A DNA stretch of 42,225 nucleotides from an uncultured Dehalococcoidales bacterium (GTDB taxonomy: Bacteria; Chloroflexota; Dehalococcoidia; GIF9; AB-539-J10). The translations under genes were made by a program, and so were the position numbers. The DNA lies in the NCBI GenBank assembly GCA_964552485.1, contig CAZKHH010000003.1, positions 1 through 42,225 on the forward strand, read 5' to 3'. The first letter of the stretch is position 1. Each line of letters opens with the position of its first letter. Below are positions 1,393 through 29,680 of the stretch, in pieces. A model generated the notes under the pieces. The model ran no database searches, had not been told where the DNA came from, and worked only from the letters and a program-made list of their open reading frames with translations.

Positions 1393-2788
1393 CCATCACC
1401 TCCTCGGTGTACCCGGCGCTTCGGCGGCCGAAATCACGTAGCTGCGGAATAATCATGGCCAACACAAGCAGGAATGAAAGCGCATCGGCTATTGGTATGG
1501 CCAACCACACGCCATCCGTGCCGAGGTATCGGGGCAGGACGAGTACAAGAGGTATGAGGAACAGCACCTGCCTTGACGTCGACGCGATGAAAGTCTTACC
1601 AACCATGCCGAGCGACTGAAAGACAGTGGAGCCCACTATCTGGAAGCCAACCAGGAAGAAGACCATGAATACCCGCCTCGACGCATGTACTCCCTCCTGG
1701 ATGAGGGAAACATCTGTCGTAAAAATGCTCATTATGGGTCGCGGCAGAAAGTACAGGACAATAAACGCAGCAATAGACAGGACCGAGGCAGCGCCCAGTG
1801 CATAGCGGGTCACGGCACGGGCGCGGTCATACCGCTTTGCCCCATAGGCGAATCCGAGGACCGGTTGAAGCCCCTGCGCGATACCCATGAGAGGCATGGC
1901 GACGAACATCATTGAGCGGTTCACGATGCCATACGCGGCTACTGACATGTCGCCCCCGTAAAGAACGAGCGTCCTGTTTATGATGAGGACGATAATGCTG
2001 GCAGCCCCCATCCGGATGAACGAAGGGAAGCCGACGGCGAGGATCTCGCGTACCACTTCGCCACGAAACCGGACAAGCGACCTTCGCAGTCGCAGCGTGC
2101 TGCGACCCGAGAGGAAATACGCCGTGATGTAAAGCGACGTCACGAATTGCGAAATGACGGTCGCGATTGCGGCTCCGCTCACTCCCAGATGCAGGAGGAA
2201 AATGAACACAGGGTCGAGCACCATGTTGAGCACAGCACCCAGTATCATGGTAATCATCGCCTTGCGGGCATTTCCTTCCGCCCTGGCGATATTGTTGAGT
2301 GTCATCGGATACAGAGCGAATACTGCCCCCAGTAATATCACTCGCGCGTACTCAAGTGAATATGGCAGGACCGCCTCTGACGCTCCGAAGAGTCGAACGA
2401 GGCTGCCGCTTGCGCCCACGCCTATCGCGGTCACAATCACACCGAAAAGCACAACGAGCGCGAAGGCAGTCCCGAGCGTCTCTTCAGCGCTGTCAATCCG
2501 TCCCGCGCCGAGCCGCCGCGACACGACGGACGCGGCACCGATTCCCACCATCATCCCGAGCGCCATCAACAGCATCATCACCGGAAACACGATGGTCACG
2601 CCGGCTATGGCCGCTGGCCCGACTCCGCGCCCGATGAAGATGGTGTCGACGACATGGTAAAGCGACATCGTGAGCATGCCGGCCATCGCGGGAAGAGACA
2701 GGCGCCACAACAGCTTCCTGACAGGCTCAGTGGCAAGCCTGTCCTGTCTCGAGGAGACGACCGGAGGTCTCGTGGATGCAAACTCCAT
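1376..2788 (-). CDS. MATE family efflux transporter (NorM/DinF-like)
   Basis: Polytopic membrane protein whose N-terminus KLLWRLSLPAMAGMLTMSLYHVVDTIFIGRGVG is typical of MATE. The track ORF extends to 2845. I set the start at ATG 2788 (MEFAST...) because an operator-like palindrome and a -35/-10 pair lie at 2797-2830, inside the longer version. Confidence 0.85.
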   Translation of the reverse strand: MEFASTRPPVVSSRQDRLATEPVRKLLWRLSLPAMAGMLTMSLYHVVDTIFIGRGVGPAAIAGVTIVFPVMMLLMALGMMVGIGAASVVSRRLGAGRIDSAEETLGTAFALVVLFGVIVTAIGVGASGSLVRLFGASEAVLPYSLEYARVILLGAVFALYPMTLNNIARAEGNARKAMITMILGAVLNMVLDPVFIFLLHLGVSGAAIATVISQFVTSLYITAYFLSGRSTLRLRRSLVRFRGEVVREILAVGFPSFIRMGAASIIVLIINRTLVLYGGDMSVAAYGIVNRSMMFVAMPLMGIAQGLQPVLGFAYGAKRYDRARAVTRYALGAASVLSIAAFIVLYFLPRPIMSIFTTDVSLIQEGVHASRRVFMVFFLVGFQIVGSTVFQSLGMVGKTFIASTSRQVLFLIPLVLVLPRYLGTDGVWLAIPIADALSFLLVLAMIIPQLRDFGRRSAGYTEEVMDGARA

Positions 2789-2796
2789 GGCGCGCC

Positions 2797-2830
2797 AGTC
2801 TAGCAAAGATTTAGTTGGTGATACAACTAA
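2797..2830 (-). promoter_or_regulatory. Putative promoter plus MarR-type operator of the MATE-marR operon
   Basis: Perfect inverted repeat TTAGTTG-GTGATA-CAACTAA at 2811-2830. On the minus strand it overlaps TTGTAT (-35, 2821-2826), N18, TAGACT (-10, 2797-2802). The -10 ends 8 nt before ATG 2788 and there is no SD, so the mRNA may be leaderless. Confidence 0.5.
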
Positions 2831-3189
2831 TAAGCGTTCGCCCATTGCGTGCCTACGCCCCGTCCGTCCATATCAGCATGAAGTGCTGGCGCACGAGGCG
2901 GTGATGATGATTGCGGGGAAAGAGACACACGAAAGCCAGGTCGATGGTGAAGGCCCGAACCGACGCCCGGGCGTATTCCTTACGGCCGGGCTGGTTAGCC
3001 AGTGGGGAGTCCTGCTGAGCCCCGCCGGTGGTGCTGTCCTGATGATATTCCCCGGCACAGTGATAATAGCCTTCAACGCCCGTTCTTTGAGGCTTCCGGA
3101 CCGACCGCCAGCTACGGATTTGACAACTGCCAAGAATCGACTGTAGATTCGGTGCATACTCGGGGGTTCTTCGGAGCACAGGACAGCAC

Positions 3190-6290: not shown

Positions 6291-6366
6291 TACACCGGCA
6301 TCCACTCGTGTGAAGCCGACGGCACATGCTAGCATACAGGCCAGGGATGACTACGGAGCACCATAG

Positions 6367-6828
6367 ATGACAAGGATAGTTGCGCTCTCCGATTCGCACA
6401 CGGCCGGTCTCAGCAGCCTGTCACCCGCGCTGAGGGACTCACTGGAAGCAGCGGACCTGATAGTTCACGCGGGCGACCAGGTGGAATCAACGTTCTTTGA
6501 AGAACTGAAAGCGCTTGGAGACGTGGTTGCGGTTGCCGGCAACATGGATTCGACGGCTCTGAAGGTGGCGTTGCCGGCCCGCCAGCTGTTCGCAGTCGAA
6601 GGCAGAACAATCGGCGTGGCGCATGGCTCGGGCGCACCAGCCGGAATACAGCAGCGGGTGAGAGCGCTCTTTCCGGAGAACCCGGAGGTCATCGTCTACG
6701 GGCACTCGCACGTGGCATATGTGGGCACCGTGAGCGGCAGCCTCATGGTAAACCCCGGTCCGGCCGCCTCGAGCTATGCCGCGGTGACCATCGGAGACGA
6801 CGTGACGGCGGACATCGTGCACCTGTAG
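6367..6828 (+). CDS. YfcE/MJ0936 family metallophosphoesterase
   Basis: 153 aa carrying the motifs LSDSH, HAGD, GNMD and GHSH in the canonical order. Confidence 0.85.
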
Positions 6829-6837
6829 CGGTCGCGC

Positions 6838-8073
6838 TCAGGATTCCAGCTTCGCCTTTGTTTCGCCCCACATCCGTTCCCGGGAGCGGTCGCGCGTCTC
6901 AAGCACCCTCTCCGCATCAGCTCCACACGCCTCACACAACGTCCTGATGACCGATTCCTCGGTCGGCGGACACCCGGGGGCATGCTTGCCAAGGCCGGCA
7001 TGCATCCTTGCGCACTTGCCGAGGAGTGCAAGTTTCTCCGAAGGTGGCACGGACTCCACTTCACCGATAACGATAGTGAGGTCGCCCATCTCGGGAGAGT
7101 AGCCGGCTTCGTCAAGGTATCTCAGTGCAGTGACCAACTCGGTCGTGCACCCGGTGCAGGCCGACTCTCCACGCACGATGTTGACCTGGGGAAACCGCTC
7201 GGCGAATACCTGGAATCCCGTCTTGAAGCGCCTCTGGTGGCTGGCGATGTCCTCACCGACCAGTTCAATGCCCTGCAGGTTCGGCGGAACACCTTCCCGC
7301 TCAGCCTGGTGGCGCAGATGCAGCACCTCGTTGGGGTCGACGCCCATCAGGGTCGCACCCGCAAGGTCGACCGACAGCGGATGTCGGCCGGCGCCTATCA
7401 GGCCAACCTCCACACAGTCGTCGGGATAGTTCCACAGCCCCTGCATACCAGTCGTGGCGTCGAGCACTACGTAATGAGGGCCCACGATGGAGTTGAGATC
7501 GACAATAGCCTGGTCAAGCCCCAGGCGGTGCGTCTTACGCTTCTCGACGCCGGGTATCACACCCTTCATATTCTTCAGGCTCAACGTCACATCCGTACGG
7601 ATGTGCGTCTTCAGTACCGGCACACTGATAATGACATCGCTCTCCATCACGGTCCGGCAGACCTTCACACGGTCCATGATGAGCGCATCGGGAATCTCGA
7701 CTTCGTCGAACTCGTCTGCATTCAGGTTGCGCAGCTCCACGCCCAGCCGCGCGGCTACTTCCTTCGTGCCTGACAATTCGAAGGCCTCTTCAGTGCTGTG
7801 ACTGACTCCGTCGTACCCGGCGCCGCAGCCGTCGGCGATGACGACCCGGGCCGGACCTCGTTCGAGAACGAACCGCGTAACGGCCTCTGTCACACGTGCA
7901 TCGGTTACCGAGCCCGTGCCGGAGCGTTGGGGGCTCCACAGGTTGGGCTTGACAAGCACGCGTGAGGAAGGGGTTATGAGTTCTTCCAGTCCTCCCGCCA
8001 GACCGACAGCGCGACGGACCGCCGCATCTATATCGTTCCCCTCAACACGTACGAACGCGACCTTTCGTTCCAC
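6838..8073 (-). CDS. DUF362 domain protein with Cys-rich C-terminal module (paralog B)
   Basis: Collinear with paralog A: VKPNL, TDARVTEAVT, VPVLKTHIRTDVTLSLKNMKG, then C-terminal CTGC, GKC, GCPP and CEAC. GTG 8073 is preceded by AAGGAGGG and gives the same N-terminal length as paralog A. The promoter at 8121-8149 excludes the longer ORF that starts at 8139. Confidence 0.8.
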   Translation of the reverse strand: MERKVAFVRVEGNDIDAAVRRAVGLAGGLEELITPSSRVLVKPNLWSPQRSGTGSVTDARVTEAVTRFVLERGPARVVIADGCGAGYDGVSHSTEEAFELSGTKEVAARLGVELRNLNADEFDEVEIPDALIMDRVKVCRTVMESDVIISVPVLKTHIRTDVTLSLKNMKGVIPGVEKRKTHRLGLDQAIVDLNSIVGPHYVVLDATTGMQGLWNYPDDCVEVGLIGAGRHPLSVDLAGATLMGVDPNEVLHLRHQAEREGVPPNLQGIELVGEDIASHQRRFKTGFQVFAERFPQVNIVRGESACTGCTTELVTALRYLDEAGYSPEMGDLTIVIGEVESVPPSEKLALLGKCARMHAGLGKHAPGCPPTEESVIRTLCEACGADAERVLETRDRSRERMWGETKAKLES

Positions 8074-23557: not shown

Positions 23558-23597
23558 GGGGGGCGCCGGGCGCGATCCGCGCGTCCCCCTTTTTCTT
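23558..23597 (+). terminator. Rho-independent terminator of the alcohol dehydrogenase gene
   Basis: GGGGGGCGC (23558-23566) pairs with GCGTCCCCC (23581-23589), including one G-U pair. The hairpin is followed by TTTTTCTT. It sits in the convergent gap with the MazG-like gene. Confidence 0.6.
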
Positions 23598-23989
23598 CAC
23601 TTCTCCGTGTCCAATTCCGTGTACTTGCGATACTCACCCTTCACCAGATGCACGGGATACTTCCGGCGGTTCACCTCAAGCTTCTTGCTCATCGTGTCTG
23701 CCATGTCGAGGCCGACAACCGAGGCAAGATTCAGGCATAGAATCATTATGTCAGACAACTCCTCGCCGAGGCGCCTGCGTTTGTCGGGGTTGTCCAGAAG
23801 TGCGGGAATCTCTTTTTCGCGCACCCACTCAAAGAGCTCAAGAAGCTCTCCGGCCTCTACGTTGATGGCGAGGGCAATATCTTTCGAGTTGTGGTACTTG
23901 CCCCATTCTCGTTCGTTGACGAATGCCTGGATGAGGTCCTTCAGTTCCGCTATCGTAGTCGTGTTATCGGAGAGCTGTGTATTGGACAT
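23597..23989 (-). CDS. MazG-type nucleoside triphosphate pyrophosphohydrolase (small all-alpha type)
   Basis: MSNTQLSDNTTTIAELKDLIQAFVNEREWGKYHNSKDIALAINVEAGELLELFEW...ELSDIMILCLNLA contains the EExxE...D metal motifs. ATG 23989 has AAGGAGG 8 nt upstream. It lies 65 nt downstream of the dnaE2 stop on the same strand. Confidence 0.8.
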   Translation of the reverse strand: MSNTQLSDNTTTIAELKDLIQAFVNEREWGKYHNSKDIALAINVEAGELLELFEWVREKEIPALLDNPDKRRRLGEELSDIMILCLNLASVVGLDMADTMSKKLEVNRRKYPVHLVKGEYRKYTELDTEK

Positions 23990-24054: not shown

Positions 24055-27000
24055 TCAACGGGCAGAGGTTGGAGCTCGCACACGGCGCGCGCGGGGTCCG
24101 GGAGAACTATCTCCGTCCGCTCGAACGGGCGAAATGATTTCAGCACGAACGTTGATTGTCCCATTCTTCTTTTGCAACGTGCCCTCTATCAAAAGAACCG
24201 GATTGAAGATACACACCTGCCTGAACCGTTCATATACATCAGGACGGATGACAACATTTATCGCTCCATACTCGTCCTCCATGGTTATGAATGCAAACCC
24301 CTTTGCGGTTGGCGGGCGCTGCTTCATGATGACATACCCTGCGATACCGACATGCACTCCGTCTTCCAGTTTCTCAAGATCTGTGCTATTCACAACTTTA
24401 TTACCCATCAGTCGTTCTCTCAGTACACGCATCGGATGATGGATGGTCGACATCTCCTGAACACTATAGTCGCAGCGCATCTCCTCCAGATCGCTCATCG
24501 CCGGCAGCGAGACATCGCTGGCGCATGAATCGAAAGGCAGTTCACCGGGCGAGCACTTTTCAAGCATGCCGAGTCGCCATACGAGGTTGCGTCGCGACTG
24601 ACCCCAGCCATCGAATGCCCCTGCCAGTATGAGGTTCTCCACGACAGCGTTTCCCAATCCAGTCCTGAAATAGAAATCGTCCAGAGAGCGGAATGCTCCC
24701 ATTTTCCGTTCTTCCGCGAGCATTGTGCGGGCCTTCACTCCCAACTCTTTCACGTACGCGAAACCTAATCGCACATTGCCATCTTCCACGCAGCAGACTG
24801 AATCGCTCTTATTTACATCCACGGACAGCACCCTAATGCCGTGCCGCTGGGCGTCATGGACAACCACTTCAGGGCGGTAGAACCCCATCGGCTGGTTGTT
24901 CAACAATGCGCAATAGAACTCGACAGGATAATGCCGCTTGAGCCAGGCCGATTGATAGCAGATGAGTGCGAAGCCTGCAGCGTGGCTCTTGCAAAAACCA
25001 TACTGTGCAAATCCTTCCAGGGACGCGAACACGCGTTCAGCGCTTTCAGCGTCGACGTCGTTGGCCATCGCGCCCTGTAGAAACCGGCCTTTCAATTTCA
25101 TCACAGCCTCATGCGAACGTTTGCGACTCATCGCACGTCTCAACTGGTCCGCCTCGCCTGCCGTGAAGTCTGCGATTGCGATGGCCGACTGGATAACCTG
25201 CTCTTGAAAGAGAATGACACCGAGGGTCTCCGAAAGTATCGGCTCCAGTTTCGGATGCAGGCAGGTGACCTTCTCCAGACCGTTCCGCCTCTGTATGTAC
25301 GGATGCACCATATTCCCCTGTATCGGTCCGGGTCGCACGATTGAGACTTCGATGGTCAGGTCTTCGATAGACCGAGGACGTGTACGCGGCAGCGTCTGCA
25401 TCTGCGCCCTGCTCTCAATCTGAAAGACACCGATAGTATCGCAGCGACATATCATGTCGTACACGGAGGCATCATCCTGCGGCAGGTTGTCAAGGTCGAG
25501 TGTCACCCCGTGATTCTTCTCAATGAGGATGCGCGCCTCATCCAGGAGGGAAAGCATCCTGAGGCCAAGAAGGTCTATCTTGATGAGTCCGGCATCGGCA
25601 ACGCTGTCCTTATCCCACTGGCAGACGATGCGGCCAGGCATAGTCGCACGCTCGAGCGGCACCATATCGCTCAGGGGACACGAAGAAATCAGCATGCCGC
25701 CGTTATGGATGGACACGTGCCGTGGAAAGTCCTCGAGTCGACTGCAGATAGAGAGGAATTCCTGGAACGGAAACCTGTCGAAATACGTATCGAATTCATC
25801 GATACTGGAAAGCTCCCCGTGGACGTTGCGCGGGCCATAGCCGTACCACGAAATCGAGCGTGCCAGGCGATCGATAACATGAGGTGGTATCCCAAGGACC
25901 TTGCCGACCTCCCGCAGTGCATTGCGCGCTTGAAACGTGACGAACGTGCATACCATGGCGGCGCGCTCTTTGCCATACGTCCTGTACACATACTGGATGA
26001 GATCTTCACGGTGAGCGGTCGACACATCGATATCGATATCGGGCACGGAAGACATCTCTTCATTCAGGAACCTGCCGAGGAACAGCCTGTTCTTTATGGG
26101 GTCGACCTTCGTTATGCCGAGGAGATACGCGACTATCGAATTCGCTGCAGAGCCACGCCCTTGTGCCGGAATGTCATGCTGCCGGGCGTATTCCATGATG
26201 TCCCAGACGATAAGGAAATAGCCGGAGAGGTCGAGCCTGTGAATAAGGTCCAGTTCCTGTTCCACCCGCGCCAGGGCTTCCGGGGTCGGTTCACGGTATC
26301 GCTCCACTATATTCTTCCTGCACAAGTCCTCAAGATAGCTTCGCGCTGTCTCTCCTTCAGGAAGGGAAAAGTCAGGAAACCGGTAGCAGGAGAATTCCAT
26401 GGACACGTTGCAGCGCCCTGCAAGCTCGACGGTGGCACGCACCGCCTCGGGATAGCTGCTAAAGAGCGTCACCATGTCCCGGTGTGATTTCAGGTAGAAC
26501 TCTCCGTTGAGTTTGAGGTCGGGACATTCTTCCAGCGTCGTCCGGGTCCTGATGCAGGTCAGGACATCGTGAAGCCTGTGGTCTTCCTTTCTCGCATAGT
26601 GGACGTTATTGGTTGCCACATAGCCCACACCGCATTCACGCGCCACCTCGACAAGCGCATCACACAGCCACATATCATCCGGATAGAGCGTGTTCTGAAG
26701 TTCGATAAAAAAATTGTCCCGACCGAATACCTCCACGTAACGGGGTACAGCTTCTCGCGCTCTGTCACTCAGCCCACCCCTGAGCAGCCGCGAGAGTTCA
26801 CCCTCCCGACAGCCCGAGAGACAGGCAAGCCCTGCAGCATGATCGGCAAGTGTCCTCCACGAAACCACAGCATTGCCTTTTGAACCGGAAAGCTGTGCCG
26901 CCGTGATGATACGGCTCAGGCCGGCATATCCACGGTTATCAAGGGCAAGGAGCGTGATATGGTAACCATCCTCAATGGTTAACTCGGCGCCGATAATCGG

Positions 27001-27183
27001 CTTGATGCCCTCTCGCTCGCATGCCTTCGAGAAGCGAACAGCGCCGTAGAGGCCATCATGGTCGGTGAGCGCCAACGCAGGCATCCCGAGTTCAGCCGCG
27101 CGACCCGCAAGCTCCTCGGGCAGAGACGCACCGTCGAGGAATGAGAACGCCGAATGACAATGAAGTTCCACGTAATCGTTCAT
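24055..27183 (-). CDS. dnaE2: Error-prone DNA polymerase DnaE2 (ImuC)
   Basis: 1042 aa. The PHP N-terminus YVELHCHSAFSFLDGASLPEELAGRAAELGMPALALTDHDGLYG is the DnaE2-type signature. The context with imuB and lexA agrees. Confidence 0.9.
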   Translation of the reverse strand: MNDYVELHCHSAFSFLDGASLPEELAGRAAELGMPALALTDHDGLYGAVRFSKACEREGIKPIIGAELTIEDGYHITLLALDNRGYAGLSRIITAAQLSGSKGNAVVSWRTLADHAAGLACLSGCREGELSRLLRGGLSDRAREAVPRYVEVFGRDNFFIELQNTLYPDDMWLCDALVEVARECGVGYVATNNVHYARKEDHRLHDVLTCIRTRTTLEECPDLKLNGEFYLKSHRDMVTLFSSYPEAVRATVELAGRCNVSMEFSCYRFPDFSLPEGETARSYLEDLCRKNIVERYREPTPEALARVEQELDLIHRLDLSGYFLIVWDIMEYARQHDIPAQGRGSAANSIVAYLLGITKVDPIKNRLFLGRFLNEEMSSVPDIDIDVSTAHREDLIQYVYRTYGKERAAMVCTFVTFQARNALREVGKVLGIPPHVIDRLARSISWYGYGPRNVHGELSSIDEFDTYFDRFPFQEFLSICSRLEDFPRHVSIHNGGMLISSCPLSDMVPLERATMPGRIVCQWDKDSVADAGLIKIDLLGLRMLSLLDEARILIEKNHGVTLDLDNLPQDDASVYDMICRCDTIGVFQIESRAQMQTLPRTRPRSIEDLTIEVSIVRPGPIQGNMVHPYIQRRNGLEKVTCLHPKLEPILSETLGVILFQEQVIQSAIAIADFTAGEADQLRRAMSRKRSHEAVMKLKGRFLQGAMANDVDAESAERVFASLEGFAQYGFCKSHAAGFALICYQSAWLKRHYPVEFYCALLNNQPMGFYRPEVVVHDAQRHGIRVLSVDVNKSDSVCCVEDGNVRLGFAYVKELGVKARTMLAEERKMGAFRSLDDFYFRTGLGNAVVENLILAGAFDGWGQSRRNLVWRLGMLEKCSPGELPFDSCASDVSLPAMSDLEEMRCDYSVQEMSTIHHPMRVLRERLMGNKVVNSTDLEKLEDGVHVGIAGYVIMKQRPPTAKGFAFITMEDEYGAINVVIRPDVYERFRQVCIFNPVLLIEGTLQKKNGTINVRAEIISPVRADGDSSPGPRARRVRAPTSAR

Positions 27184-27203: not shown

Positions 27204-27461
27204 CTAGTCATGGACTCGCTGCAGGTGCCAGTTCCCGGTTACCAGGTCACGAAACAGCTCGCAGATGATGCCTCCTTCAAGCCTGACTCTGTAGTAGTCG
27301 CGTTCTACGGGACTCTTCCACCACTCCTGGCTTACGCGCCACCGGGCAAGAACATCTTCCACCCGGCGCGTACGCGCTCCGTATATGACGTGCTGTGGTT
27401 CGTAATCATCAGACTCAATGACCTGCAGAAGCCGTGTCTCCCATGAGAGCTTGTTCATCAT
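27204..27461 (-). CDS. Stand-alone 85-aa protein resembling the extreme C-terminal module of ImuB
   Basis: MMNKLSWETRLLQVIESDDYEPQHVIYGARTRRVEDVLARWRVSQEWWKSPVERDYYRVRLEGGIICELFRDLVTGNWHLQRVHD. Its start overlaps the imuB-core stop (ATGA), with SD-like GGTGAG just upstream. The EWW...RDYYRV...LFRD...WxLxxV pattern matches what I recall of ImuB C-termini. Confidence 0.6.
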   Translation of the reverse strand: MMNKLSWETRLLQVIESDDYEPQHVIYGARTRRVEDVLARWRVSQEWWKSPVERDYYRVRLEGGIICELFRDLVTGNWHLQRVHD

Positions 27462-28642
27462 CTCTCACCATCGCAGGCGGCAAACATGAACTGCTCCTCC
27501 GGAGCCCTGCCCGTTCTTCTGATCACTACCCTCTTCACAATATCCCGTCCGTACCGTTCTTGCAGCCGGCGGACTGTCTCCTGCAATTGACTGCTCCCCC
27601 GACGGTGAGTGTGGAGAAAGGACGATTGTCTTCCAGATTCGGCGCTCAAGCCCGAGACTTCAAGACTGAATTCTTCGACGGGAGCCTGCAGGTCCAGCCT
27701 TTCTATACAGGCCGAGACGCGTCCTCTCATAGCTTCGCGGGACGAGACGGGCTCCTTAAACCGCACGACTTCCCGTTCAACGGCCCCATCTTCAAGGCGC
27801 AGCGTGACCGTCAACGTACGGCAACACTGCCACCGTTTATCCAGCTCGCGACATGTCGAGTCGAGAGCATCTTCAGCAGCCTCTTCCAATTCTTCTTTAT
27901 CCTCGACCGGTATGTCGAACGACTGTGTCTGGACAAATTCATTGTCATCGCGCCACTCCCCCACCTGTGCATTGTCGACGCCTCGTGCAAGGTCACACAA
28001 CATGCGTCCTTCGGCGCCGAACTGTGCCTCGACGGCTCCCCGCGGCAACAGGAGCATCTCTCCTACCGTCGAAATACCGAACAGCTGCAATTTACGCACC
28101 GAGTTGTCAGACACCGGCAGATACTCGAGGGGCAGGTCACGGAGAAAACGCTGCTCTTCACCCTCACGGATAACGAGAACGCTGCCGGACTCAGCCTCGC
28201 TGGACGCAACCGCAGCCACGAAGCGTGAAGACGCTATACCGGAGGCAGCACGGAACCCGGCATCCTGTACGGCTGCGAGTGTACTCCCGACAAAACGAAC
28301 CGCATCTGTCTCATACCTGAGACCGAGAAACACGTGGTCGGGAGGACCTGGCTCAACGAGAGGGCAGAGGCGACCGAGAAGAGACACAATACTGTTGAGA
28401 GAGCTGCGACTCTTCTCCTCGCTCCAGGGACGGAACACGCCACCTGAGCAGAGCGAATACGCCTGGCGCAGCGGAATTCCGGGAACAACACCATAAGCCT
28501 CCGCCTCTTCGGAGACATCGTAGACCCTGCCTGTGTCGCGGCAATAACTCCCGAGTATGAGAGGTTTCCCGGCGAGTGCAGGTTCCTCGTGCTGTTCAAC
28601 CTGGACAGCAAATCGAGGCATGTATACGCATGCGATTCTCAT
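27458..28642 (-). CDS. imuB: ImuB-like catalytically inactive Y-family polymerase core
   Basis: MRIACVYMPRFAVQVE occupies the position of the DinB VDMDxFFAxVE motif, with both Asp replaced (by Y and P). Y-family fold length of about 394 aa. It lies 2-17 nt downstream of the lexA stop. ATG 28642; the track start is TTG 28657. Confidence 0.75.
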   Translation of the reverse strand: MRIACVYMPRFAVQVEQHEEPALAGKPLILGSYCRDTGRVYDVSEEAEAYGVVPGIPLRQAYSLCSGGVFRPWSEEKSRSSLNSIVSLLGRLCPLVEPGPPDHVFLGLRYETDAVRFVGSTLAAVQDAGFRAASGIASSRFVAAVASSEAESGSVLVIREGEEQRFLRDLPLEYLPVSDNSVRKLQLFGISTVGEMLLLPRGAVEAQFGAEGRMLCDLARGVDNAQVGEWRDDNEFVQTQSFDIPVEDKEELEEAAEDALDSTCRELDKRWQCCRTLTVTLRLEDGAVEREVVRFKEPVSSREAMRGRVSACIERLDLQAPVEEFSLEVSGLSAESGRQSSFLHTHRRGSSQLQETVRRLQERYGRDIVKRVVIRRTGRAPEEQFMFAACDGER

Positions 28643-28659
28643 GGGACACTTCCGCAAAG

Positions 28660-29292
28660 TCAGGAGACAAGGCTGCGAATCACCGCCACAATCCTGCCCT
28701 GGACTTCAACGTTATCAGGGTCCACGTAGAGCGGCTCCACCTGTCGGTTTGCGGGCTGCAGCCTCACACGGTCGCCATCGCGGTAGATGCGCTTGAGGGT
28801 CACTTCGTGTTCATCCTTGAGCCACACGGCTACCATATCGCCGTCCACAGCAGCGGAAACAGCCTCCATGATGACGATATCGCCATCCATAATGCAGGCA
28901 TCAATCATGGACCGGCCGCGCACGCGGAGCGCAAAGAGATTCCGGCTATCACCCACCACTTCACGCGTCAGCGTCAGCATCTCCTCAGCCTCCGTTGTCC
29001 AATTCTCGGACTCCGGCACCGGAATGGGTGTTCCAGCCGCTATCGTACCGAGAAGCGGGATCTCAATATTGTTGCCCTGTACAAGTTGGATGCTACGAAA
29101 TATACCGGGCTCGCGGCGCAGCACGCCCTGCTTCTCAAGGACATTGAGGTGATATTGAACAAGGTTGGGAGAGCTGAGGCTACATCCTTCAACGATATCG
29201 CTCACAGATGGCGAGTAGCCTTTGTCCGCGATAAACGACTGAACAAATGCAAGTATCCTCTCTCTCGTCCTGCCTGAACCCGCTCCGGTCAT
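28660..29292 (-). CDS. lexA: LexA repressor
   Basis: N-terminal wHTH (RERILAFVQSFIADKGYSPSVSDIVEGCSLSSPNLVQYHLNVLEKQG). Ala-Gly cleavage site in LLGTIAAGTPI. Catalytic Ser in VRGRSM and Lys in EVTLKR. Confidence 0.92.
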   Translation of the reverse strand: MTGAGSGRTRERILAFVQSFIADKGYSPSVSDIVEGCSLSSPNLVQYHLNVLEKQGVLRREPGIFRSIQLVQGNNIEIPLLGTIAAGTPIPVPESENWTTEAEEMLTLTREVVGDSRNLFALRVRGRSMIDACIMDGDIVIMEAVSAAVDGDMVAVWLKDEHEVTLKRIYRDGDRVRLQPANRQVEPLYVDPDNVEVQGRIVAVIRSLVS

Positions 29293-29313: not shown

Positions 29314-29331
29314 GTTGTATGAATATACAAC
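29314..29331 (-). promoter_or_regulatory. Candidate LexA operator (SOS box)
   Basis: GTTGTAT-GAAT-ATACAAC is a perfect 7-4-7 palindrome that overlaps the -10 hexamer of the lexA promoter, 22 nt upstream of the lexA ATG. Confidence 0.5.
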
Positions 29332-29350
29332 TACATGAGGCCGACGTCAA
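29322..29350 (-). promoter_or_regulatory. Putative sigma70-like promoter of the lexA-imuB-dnaE2 operon
   Basis: Minus strand TTGACG (29350-29345), N17, TATATT (29327-29322). SD GAGAGGTG follows before the ATG. Confidence 0.5.
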
Positions 29351-29395: not shown

Positions 29396-29680
29396 CTACC
29401 GGACGTCCTGGAGAGCGTGCGAGAGAAACCGCTCGAACTGCCCTTCCTCATCCGCCACCGAGGGTATCGATGAAGAATAGACCGTACGCCCGTTTTCGCG
29501 ACGAGACTTGACAAGCCCTCCACGCCGGAGCACCTGCACGTGATATGCAACAGTCCGACGCGATACGCCGAGCGAGTCCTGCAACTCGGCCGACGAACGA
29601 GGCCCGTCCTGCAGCAGTTTAAGGACACGCAGACGGGTATCTGCTGAGAGCGCCCTGACCACGTTTACTATGTCCCGCAT
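29396..29680 (-). CDS. ArsR/SmtB family transcriptional regulator
   Basis: LSADTRLRVLKLLQDGPRSSAELQDSLGVSRRTVAYHVQVLRRGGLV. There are no Cys residues in the usual alpha3 metal site. Confidence 0.85.
   Translation of the reverse strand: MRDIVNVVRALSADTRLRVLKLLQDGPRSSAELQDSLGVSRRTVAYHVQVLRRGGLVKSRRENGRTVYSSSIPSVADEEGQFERFLSHALQDVR

Follow-up and report, generated by a model that had tools for sequence, protein, structure and literature searches.

We analysed a 42,225-nucleotide (nt) stretch of DNA, referred to here as the window, from an uncultured Dehalococcoidales bacterium. From the open reading frame (ORF) listing and the sequence, we identified four genes on the minus strand in the order lexA, an inactive Y-family polymerase (iPolY) core, a small ORF for the C-terminal module of ImuB (ImuB-C) and dnaE2, with a gene for a MazG-like nucleoside triphosphate (NTP) pyrophosphohydrolase directly downstream of dnaE2 (Table 1). 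The original prediction read the core and the small ORF as an ImuB protein divided into a dead polymerase and a separately translated C-terminal module, in a cassette without ImuA. The two products together come to about 478 amino acids (aa), within the ImuB range and close to the total of about 480 aa that it had given.

Table 1. Features of the lexA-iPolY-imuB-C-dnaE2 locus and their positions in the window
Feature	Position	Strand	Size or location	Annotation
MazG-like NTP pyrophosphohydrolase gene	23597-23989	minus	130 aa	Pfam MazG-like in the orthologue of related locus L001
dnaE2	24055-27183	minus	1042 aa	NF004225 error-prone DNA polymerase, 1125 bits (cut-off 939); PHP, pol3_alpha, finger, HHH_6 and OB domains
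ImuB-C ORF	27204-27461	minus	85 aa from ATG1; 84 aa from ATG2 (27458)	
Junction	27456-27467	minus		Small-frame TGA 27465-27467; ATG1 27459-27461; core stop TGA 27458-27460; ATG2 27456-27458
iPolY core	27458-28642	minus	394 aa from ATG	Palm, fingers, thumb and little finger; Pfam IMS 1.9e-17, IMS_C 7.9e-10
Acidic/aromatic C-terminal tail PEEQFMFAACDGER	27461-27502	minus	C-terminus of core	Last codons hold the Shine-Dalgarno (SD)-like purine run for imuB-C
RecA N-terminus (RecA-NT)-like motif QLQETVRRLQERYGRDIVKRVV	27524-27589	minus	Core residues 352-373	
QSSFL	27614-27628	minus	Core residues 339-343	Opposite QLSFL of Pol IV 7yll_A; probable beta-clamp-binding motif
lexA	28660-29292	minus	210 aa; first gene of the operon	TIGR00498, 164 bits (cut-off 111); Pfam LexA_DNA_bind and Peptidase_S24
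Palindrome GTTGTATATTCATACAAC	29314-29331	minus	18 bp, perfect	Candidate LexA operator

The ImuB-C superfamily was defined by Aravind et al. (2013) as a module of about 80 residues, mainly beta, in which a C-terminal Trp is highly conserved and basic residues are conserved as well; standalone versions were noted, including some in operons with DnaE2 and an inactive DinB (PMC3765255). When 52 small proteins of the window type were compared with 22 Myxococcota ImuB C-termini by hhalign, columns 3-85 fell on the last 83 residues of ImuB (probability 98.8%, E 7e-17), in agreement with the earlier assignment of the 85-aa ORF. By BLASTP, the window protein matched the ImuB C-terminus of a Myxococcus sp. 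metagenome-assembled genome (locus L031) at E 1e-11, and the published standalone ImuB-C proteins of Sphaerobacter, Dehalogenimonas and Deinococcus deserti at E 3e-14, 4e-12 and 8e-9, respectively. The Myxococcota proteins end in GEWWxPxPFDRDYYRVRLEGLGDCWVFRDGADGRLYLHGxFD, the counterpart of which in the window is QEWWKSPVERDYYRVRLEGGIICELFRDLVTGNWHLQRVHD, and both sets follow the pattern EWW..P..RDYYRVRLEG...RD..G.W.L....D; the C-terminal ImuB motif named in the original prediction is thus real and present in both. Among the 52 sequences, W78 and W48 were invariant, and R54, W41 and W47 were conserved in at least 90%. AlphaFold2 with the family alignment predicted a single chain of six strands, all beta (predicted local distance difference test score 86, predicted template modelling (TM) score 0.75). 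A Foldseek search of the PDB with this model found no structure of credible similarity (best E 0.41, TM<0.45), in accord with what PMC12926913 describes for ImuB-C, and sequence searches of the PDB, whether with the protein alone or with its profile, returned only noise (calpain, nucleocapsid; E>0.1). Judged by these alignments, the small ORF is the ImuB-C module, homologous over its whole length.

We also scanned species-representative genomes with 13 close sequences as the query. About 30 Myxococcota loci had the domain, where it makes up the final ~60-80 residues of a long ImuB ORF. These loci are canonical imuA-imuB-dnaE2 cassettes, in which the best NCBIfam match of the upstream gene is ImuA and dnaE2 lies downstream. 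The fused ImuB of two Myxococcota loci, L047 and L048, carries a repetitive insertion, GFAARTDLAARTDLAARTDLAA..., within ImuB-C, between the WW motif and RDYYRV.

The division of ImuB in the window had been put forward as mechanistically interesting; it is neither unusual nor new, since the operon type is already published, also from the same class. Timinskas and Venclovas (2019) described operons of inactive PolY, standalone ImuB-C and DnaE2, often with lexA and never with imuA, in which the PolY retains a RecA-NT-like motif, so that RecA may replace ImuA; their supplementary table lists 'LexA->iPolY->ImuB-C->DnaE2' in Dehalogenimonas lykanthroporepellens of the Dehalococcoidia (PMC6511836). 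A 2026 NAR survey named the arrangement the DnaE2X-iPolY-ImuB-C-RecA module, referred to it as 'split ImuB' and considered it probably ancestral to the fused form; its AlphaFold models show ImuB-C as a beta-barrel with a novel fold, in contact with the PHP domain of DnaE2 (PMC12926913). All of this, from the type of system and its reading as a 'split ImuB' to the lack of ImuA and RecA as the proposed substitute, is therefore already published.

The core aligned with the solved Pol IV 7yll_A at E 4e-31, its N-terminus RIACVYMPRFAVQVE lying opposite KIIHVDMDAFFASIE. HVDMDAFF of Pol IV corresponds to CVYMPRFA, such that the first catalytic Asp is replaced by Tyr and the second by Pro, and the SIDE motif of 7yll_A reads PPDH, the Asp of which varies in relatives. 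None of 18 aligned orthologous cores (the window and 17 relatives) kept an acidic residue at the catalytic columns, and all DinB/Pol IV equivalog matches of the core in NCBIfam were below threshold. Loss of both catalytic Asp had been proposed originally and was borne out here, and the core is predicted to be a catalytically dead Y-family polymerase. A TTG at 28657 would extend it by 5 aa; relatives start at MRIAC, so this extension is unsupported.

Three further elements were recognised towards the C-terminus of the core. QSSFL, kept as Q-[ST]-SFL in 12 of 17 relatives, is the probable beta-clamp-binding motif. It is followed by QLQETVRRLQERYGRDIVKRVV, which matches, column for column and inside an alignment of E 1e-43, the RecA-NT-like motif tabulated for the iPolYs of Sphaerobacter and Dehalogenimonas (PMC6511836). 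A[VI]xxLQxRYG is common to all relatives, as part of a fuller segment A[VI]xxLQxRYGxxVVK[RK] that leads into the tail. The tail itself has PE[ED]xFxF in 18/18 relatives (longer form PE[ED]xFxFxxC[DE]xE) and could, speculatively, be the site at which ImuB-C docks. Over its entire 394 aa, end to end, the core was 31% identical to the published Sphaerobacter iPolY-wE2X (E 1e-43), and it was 23-28% identical to Myxococcota ImuB. The core stands nearer to the 'other inactive PolY' partners in the literature, and to DinB-type Pol IV, than to canonical ImuB.

The layout of the junction was confirmed as originally described. The core frame reads GGT GAG AGA TGA, ATGATG overlaps the stop, the SD-like purine run lies just upstream, and a single indel could fuse the two frames only within a few nt because of the TGA that precedes ATG1 in the small frame. 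The small ORF exists as predicted, although its start and length probably need revision. Most relatives have only the Met of ATG2, and in a variant contig, X2, the G at 27459 is changed, which destroys ATG1 and keeps both the stop (as TAA) and ATG2; the true start is therefore probably ATG2, giving a protein of 84 aa (MNKL...) rather than 85 aa.

The overlap of the ORFs by 1-4 nt and their ImuB-like summed length would also be expected if an assembly or sequencing frameshift at 27456-27467 had broken one full-length imuB. The survey of relatives effectively refutes this. In 18 related loci of independent assemblies, from 15 separate Dehalococcoidia/Chloroflexota species genomes and three metagenome contigs (19 loci counting the window), we found lexA, the core (394-428 aa), the 84-aa ORF and dnaE2 in this order, with the split in 18/18 and core and small-protein identity dropping to 30% and 49%, respectively. 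Three junction geometries were observed: a stop/start overlap (ATGA, GTGA or TGATG) in 14/19 loci, namely the window and 13/18 relatives; an in-frame stop (TGA or TAA) followed by GAG and ATG, a 3-nt gap, in 3/19; and a 28-nt gap in 2/19. Eleven standalone homologues of 83-85 aa (63-91% identity) occurred in independent metagenomes, and standalone ImuB-C genes are also on record from complete genomes (PMC6511836, PMC12926913). Logan contigs of other runs crossed the junction with no indel, among them X2, which comes from a different study, is 98% identical and has TAA in place of TGA; a contig from a metatranscriptome, belonging to a relative at 93% identity, crossed it as well. This junction-spanning evidence consists of contigs rather than raw reads, and X1 is possibly a run of the source sample. 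In comparisons with unsaturated synonymous divergence (dS), the ratio of nonsynonymous to synonymous substitution (dN/dS) of the small ORF was 0.11-0.23. These data indicate that the split is a genuine two-gene arrangement under selection, not an assembly error, in line with the original view that the genes are separate. The stop/start overlap is consistent with translational coupling of iPolY and ImuB-C.

In L013 (5995-6003), L014 (5995-6003) and L016 (2140-2148), iPolY and ImuB-C share a reading frame and are one substitution from a fused ImuB-like gene.

Programmed recoding could in principle yield a fused product beside the separate ones, by -1 frameshifting in the window, where the small ORF is read at -1 to the core frame, or by stop readthrough in L013, L014 and L016, where only the stop and GAG lie between the ORFs. 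We consider this extremely unlikely. The frame relation varies among relatives (-1, in frame, or +1 with a 28-nt gap), as does the stop (TGA, TAA), and every small ORF has its own start codon, most also an SD-like run. Programmed frameshifting in particular was rejected on the differing frame relations and the lack of a slippery heptamer at the junction.

The dnaE2 product is, from its domains, an error-prone C-family polymerase, and is presumed to be the catalytic subunit. Its N-terminal 400 aa were 46% and 43% identical to two published DnaE2X proteins and 38% and 32% identical to Myxococcota DnaE2, and we provisionally place it in the DnaE2X group. tblastn with two Myxococcota ImuA proteins gave no match in the 42-kb window, as the description of a cassette without ImuA had implied, nor in the loci of the relatives. 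Directly upstream of the core, where canonical cassettes usually have imuA, lies lexA, and this was the case in 18/18 related loci.

Upstream of lexA, the palindrome GTTGTATATTCATACAAC spans the -10 hexamer TATATT (29322-29327) of a promoter TTGACG (29345-29350)-N17-TATATT. No other perfect TTGTAT-N4-ATACAA site occurs in the window, and a palindrome of this type also precedes lexA in 11 of the related loci. GAAC-N4-GTTC, the Cheo box of Gram-positive bacteria, showed no enrichment in the window and was not present at the lexA promoter. Because the palindrome covers the -10 element and its type is shared by relatives ahead of lexA, control of the operon by LexA is likely. In a deeper clade (L013-L018), with LexA proteins 54-58% identical, a Cheo-like GAAC-N4-GTT[AT] box stands at the operator position instead, which suggests that the type of LexA box switched within the class Dehalococcoidia.

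Altogether, the locus is very probably an SOS-type lexA-iPolY-imuB-C-dnaE2 operon, possibly with the MazG-like gene, of a Dehalococcoidia-like member of the Chloroflexota, in which the functions of ImuB are carried by two separately translated proteins. We propose that LexA would act on the palindrome at the -10 element to repress the operon. Upon DNA damage, the operon would be expressed and iPolY, ImuB-C and DnaE2 made, as in SOS induction described in the literature. iPolY would then serve as a scaffold on the beta clamp and, to judge from its motifs, may use the RecA-NT-like one to bind RecA, which would stand in for ImuA. ImuB-C would bridge iPolY to the PHP domain of DnaE2, as suggested by the published AlphaFold models and by data from Mycobacterium, and DnaE2 would perform error-prone lesion bypass. 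All these protein-protein contacts, and the substitution by RecA, we infer from the literature.

A different role for the small protein was also weighed. Aravind et al. (2013) proposed that such proteins are DNA-damage sensors or DNA-binding factors, in which case ImuB-C would be independent and merely co-expressed with the polymerases. Its conserved basic residues and Trp without a catalytic pattern fit this proposal, as do standalone ImuB-C proteins found with Ku/ligase, SplB photolyase and SRAP in the absence of polymerases (PMC3765255). We regard it as unlikely for the window protein, given the tight stop/start coupling to iPolY over deep divergence, the binding of DnaE2 and ImuA' by the C-terminal region of Mycobacterium ImuB (cited in PMC6511836) and the placement of ImuB-C on the DnaE2 PHP domain in the AlphaFold models (PMC12926913). 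Sensing and bridging are compatible and not mutually exclusive.

Several observations weigh against the assignment of the locus to an ImuA-less mutagenesis operon. The small protein scored 17.7 bits against Pfam DUF6504, below the cut-off of 24.2, which its homologues P0013 (30.8) and P0014 (33.8) passed. The DUF6504 model found no match in the Myxococcota ImuB C-termini, and so covers only part of the superfamily; a full-text literature search found no paper mentioning DUF6504. In the deeper clade L013-L018, an insertion interrupts the clamp motif. QLQETVRRLQERYGRDIVKRVV is short, and its gap-free alignment to the RecA N-termini LEIAVGLIEKQFGKGSIMKL is weak (local score 22-29). The DnaE2X grouping reflects pairwise identity of the first 400 residues alone, and the absence of ImuA/RecA-like sequence extends over the 42-kb window and about +/-6 kb of flanks in the 18 relatives. 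Finally, in four relatives (L009, L010, L012 and L015) a gene on the opposite strand separates imuB-C from dnaE2, and a single transcript is therefore not universal. This inserted gene, at 2316-3005 (minus) in L009 and 6336-7031 (minus) in L010, with similar gaps of ~600 nt in L012 and L015, encodes an XRE-type helix-turn-helix (HTH) protein with C-terminal hydrophobic segments.

The original prediction had described the arrangement as a split, implying fission of ImuB. A lineage-specific fission of an ancestral fused ImuB in this Chloroflexota lineage, together with loss of ImuA, would agree with the end-to-end match of the small protein to ImuB-C of fused ImuB and with a break exactly at the domain boundary. 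It would also agree with the existence of fused relatives, P0017 (538 aa) and P0077 (461 aa), which have the domain at the extreme C-terminus of proteins with IMS and IMS_C, and a true secondary ImuB split is on record in Corynebacterium epidermidicanis (PMC6511836). To our mind it is nevertheless improbable. Using phmmer against 1.84 billion representative proteins, we obtained 739 homologues of the small protein at E<=1e-3, and 148 of the best 150 of these were standalone small proteins. The other two were P0017 and P0077. Moreover, the core is nearer to Pol IV/PolY-core proteins and the published 'other inactive' PolYs than to ImuB, the module also occurs in Firmicutes, Deinococcus and Chloroflexi, and the literature favours fusion as the derived state, the unfused one being probably ancestral. 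In the Corynebacterium case, the only one recorded, the second piece carries the RecA-NT motif, which in the window is on the polymerase piece.

The closest known system is the operon of Dehalogenimonas lykanthroporepellens BL-DC-9 (ADJ25742-ADJ25745), which has the same order and content and belongs to the same class as the window; the DnaE2X-module systems of Sphaerobacter thermophilus, Kyrpidia tusciae and Deinococcus deserti are grouped with it (PMC6511836, PMC12926913). The window and the published module have in common a dead PolY with a RecA-NT-like motif, a standalone ImuB-C of ~80-95 aa and the lack of imuA, in our case over the 42-kb stretch. Identity between them is low (33-38% for ImuB-C, 26-31% for iPolY and 43-46% for the DnaE2 N-terminus), with alignments running end to end. 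The window ImuB-C is without the N-terminal extension of ~10 residues seen in the published proteins, and the core tail reads PEEQFMF... in the window and EVEPWSRIPERR... in the iPolYs of Sphaerobacter and Dehalogenimonas. The window lineage further differs in its stop/start overlap and its candidate LexA box.

With the canonical, damage-inducible ImuA-ImuB-DnaE2 (ImuC) mutasome of Mycobacterium, Caulobacter, Pseudomonas and Myxococcus, the window locus shares a dead Y-family scaffold, a probable clamp motif, a RecA-NT-like motif, ImuB-C and DnaE2 as the presumed catalytic polymerase. In the canonical system, however, the polymerase-like chain includes ImuB-C by fusion, and the RecA homologue ImuA is obligate and encoded upstream, while in the window ImuB-C is a separate gene and no imuA lies nearby. 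Canonical ImuB is a single polypeptide; here a stop separates two ORFs that lie in different frames. The operon lexA-imuB-C-polY of Geobacter sulfurreducens (GSU0042 type; PMC3765255) is likewise LexA-linked and combines a standalone ImuB-C with a Y-family polymerase, but its PolY is apparently active, dnaE2 is missing and the gene order is different. In C. epidermidicanis, the functions of ImuB also reside on two polypeptides (PMC6511836). That split is a secondary break in a canonical ImuA-ImuB-DnaE2 system, with three genes between the pieces, whereas the window genes overlap. E. coli Pol V (UmuD'2C-RecA-ATP) and B. subtilis YqjW-YqjX resemble the window system in having a Y-family subunit with a RecA-NT-like motif, a small, beta-rich separate subunit and LexA control, which is likely for the window. 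They differ in that the Y-family subunit is active, the small one (UmuD', YolD/YqjX) is built on an SH3-like core that bears no relation to ImuB-C, and there is no C-family polymerase.

The locus leaves current understanding unchanged. It adds to the ImuA-less iPolY/ImuB-C/DnaE2 module a well-supported clade of uncultured Dehalococcoidia, in which the two-gene state is held by purifying selection, apparently with translational coupling. It also lends modest support to the published view of ImuB-C as an autonomous subunit, analogous to UmuD' or YolD, that was fused to the scaffold in canonical ImuB. We think it very unlikely that the Dehalococcoidia series represents natural stages between an unfused and a fused (ImuB) state. 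In L013, L014 and L016, low-level readthrough or one point mutation would give a full ImuB-like fusion; if such a product were made and functional, it would offer a direct view of the origin of ImuB, and the ratio of free to tethered ImuB-C might tune assembly of the mutasome.

The MazG-like gene is kept directly downstream of dnaE2 in nine related loci (66-89% identity) and is absent in L006, L013 and L014. It is possibly the last gene of the operon, and its product may sanitise the nucleotide pool beside an error-prone polymerase. At the other end, upstream of lexA, lies a gene for an ArsR/HTH_20-type regulator of 94 aa (29396-29680, minus strand), which is kept in 10 related loci (57-93% identity).

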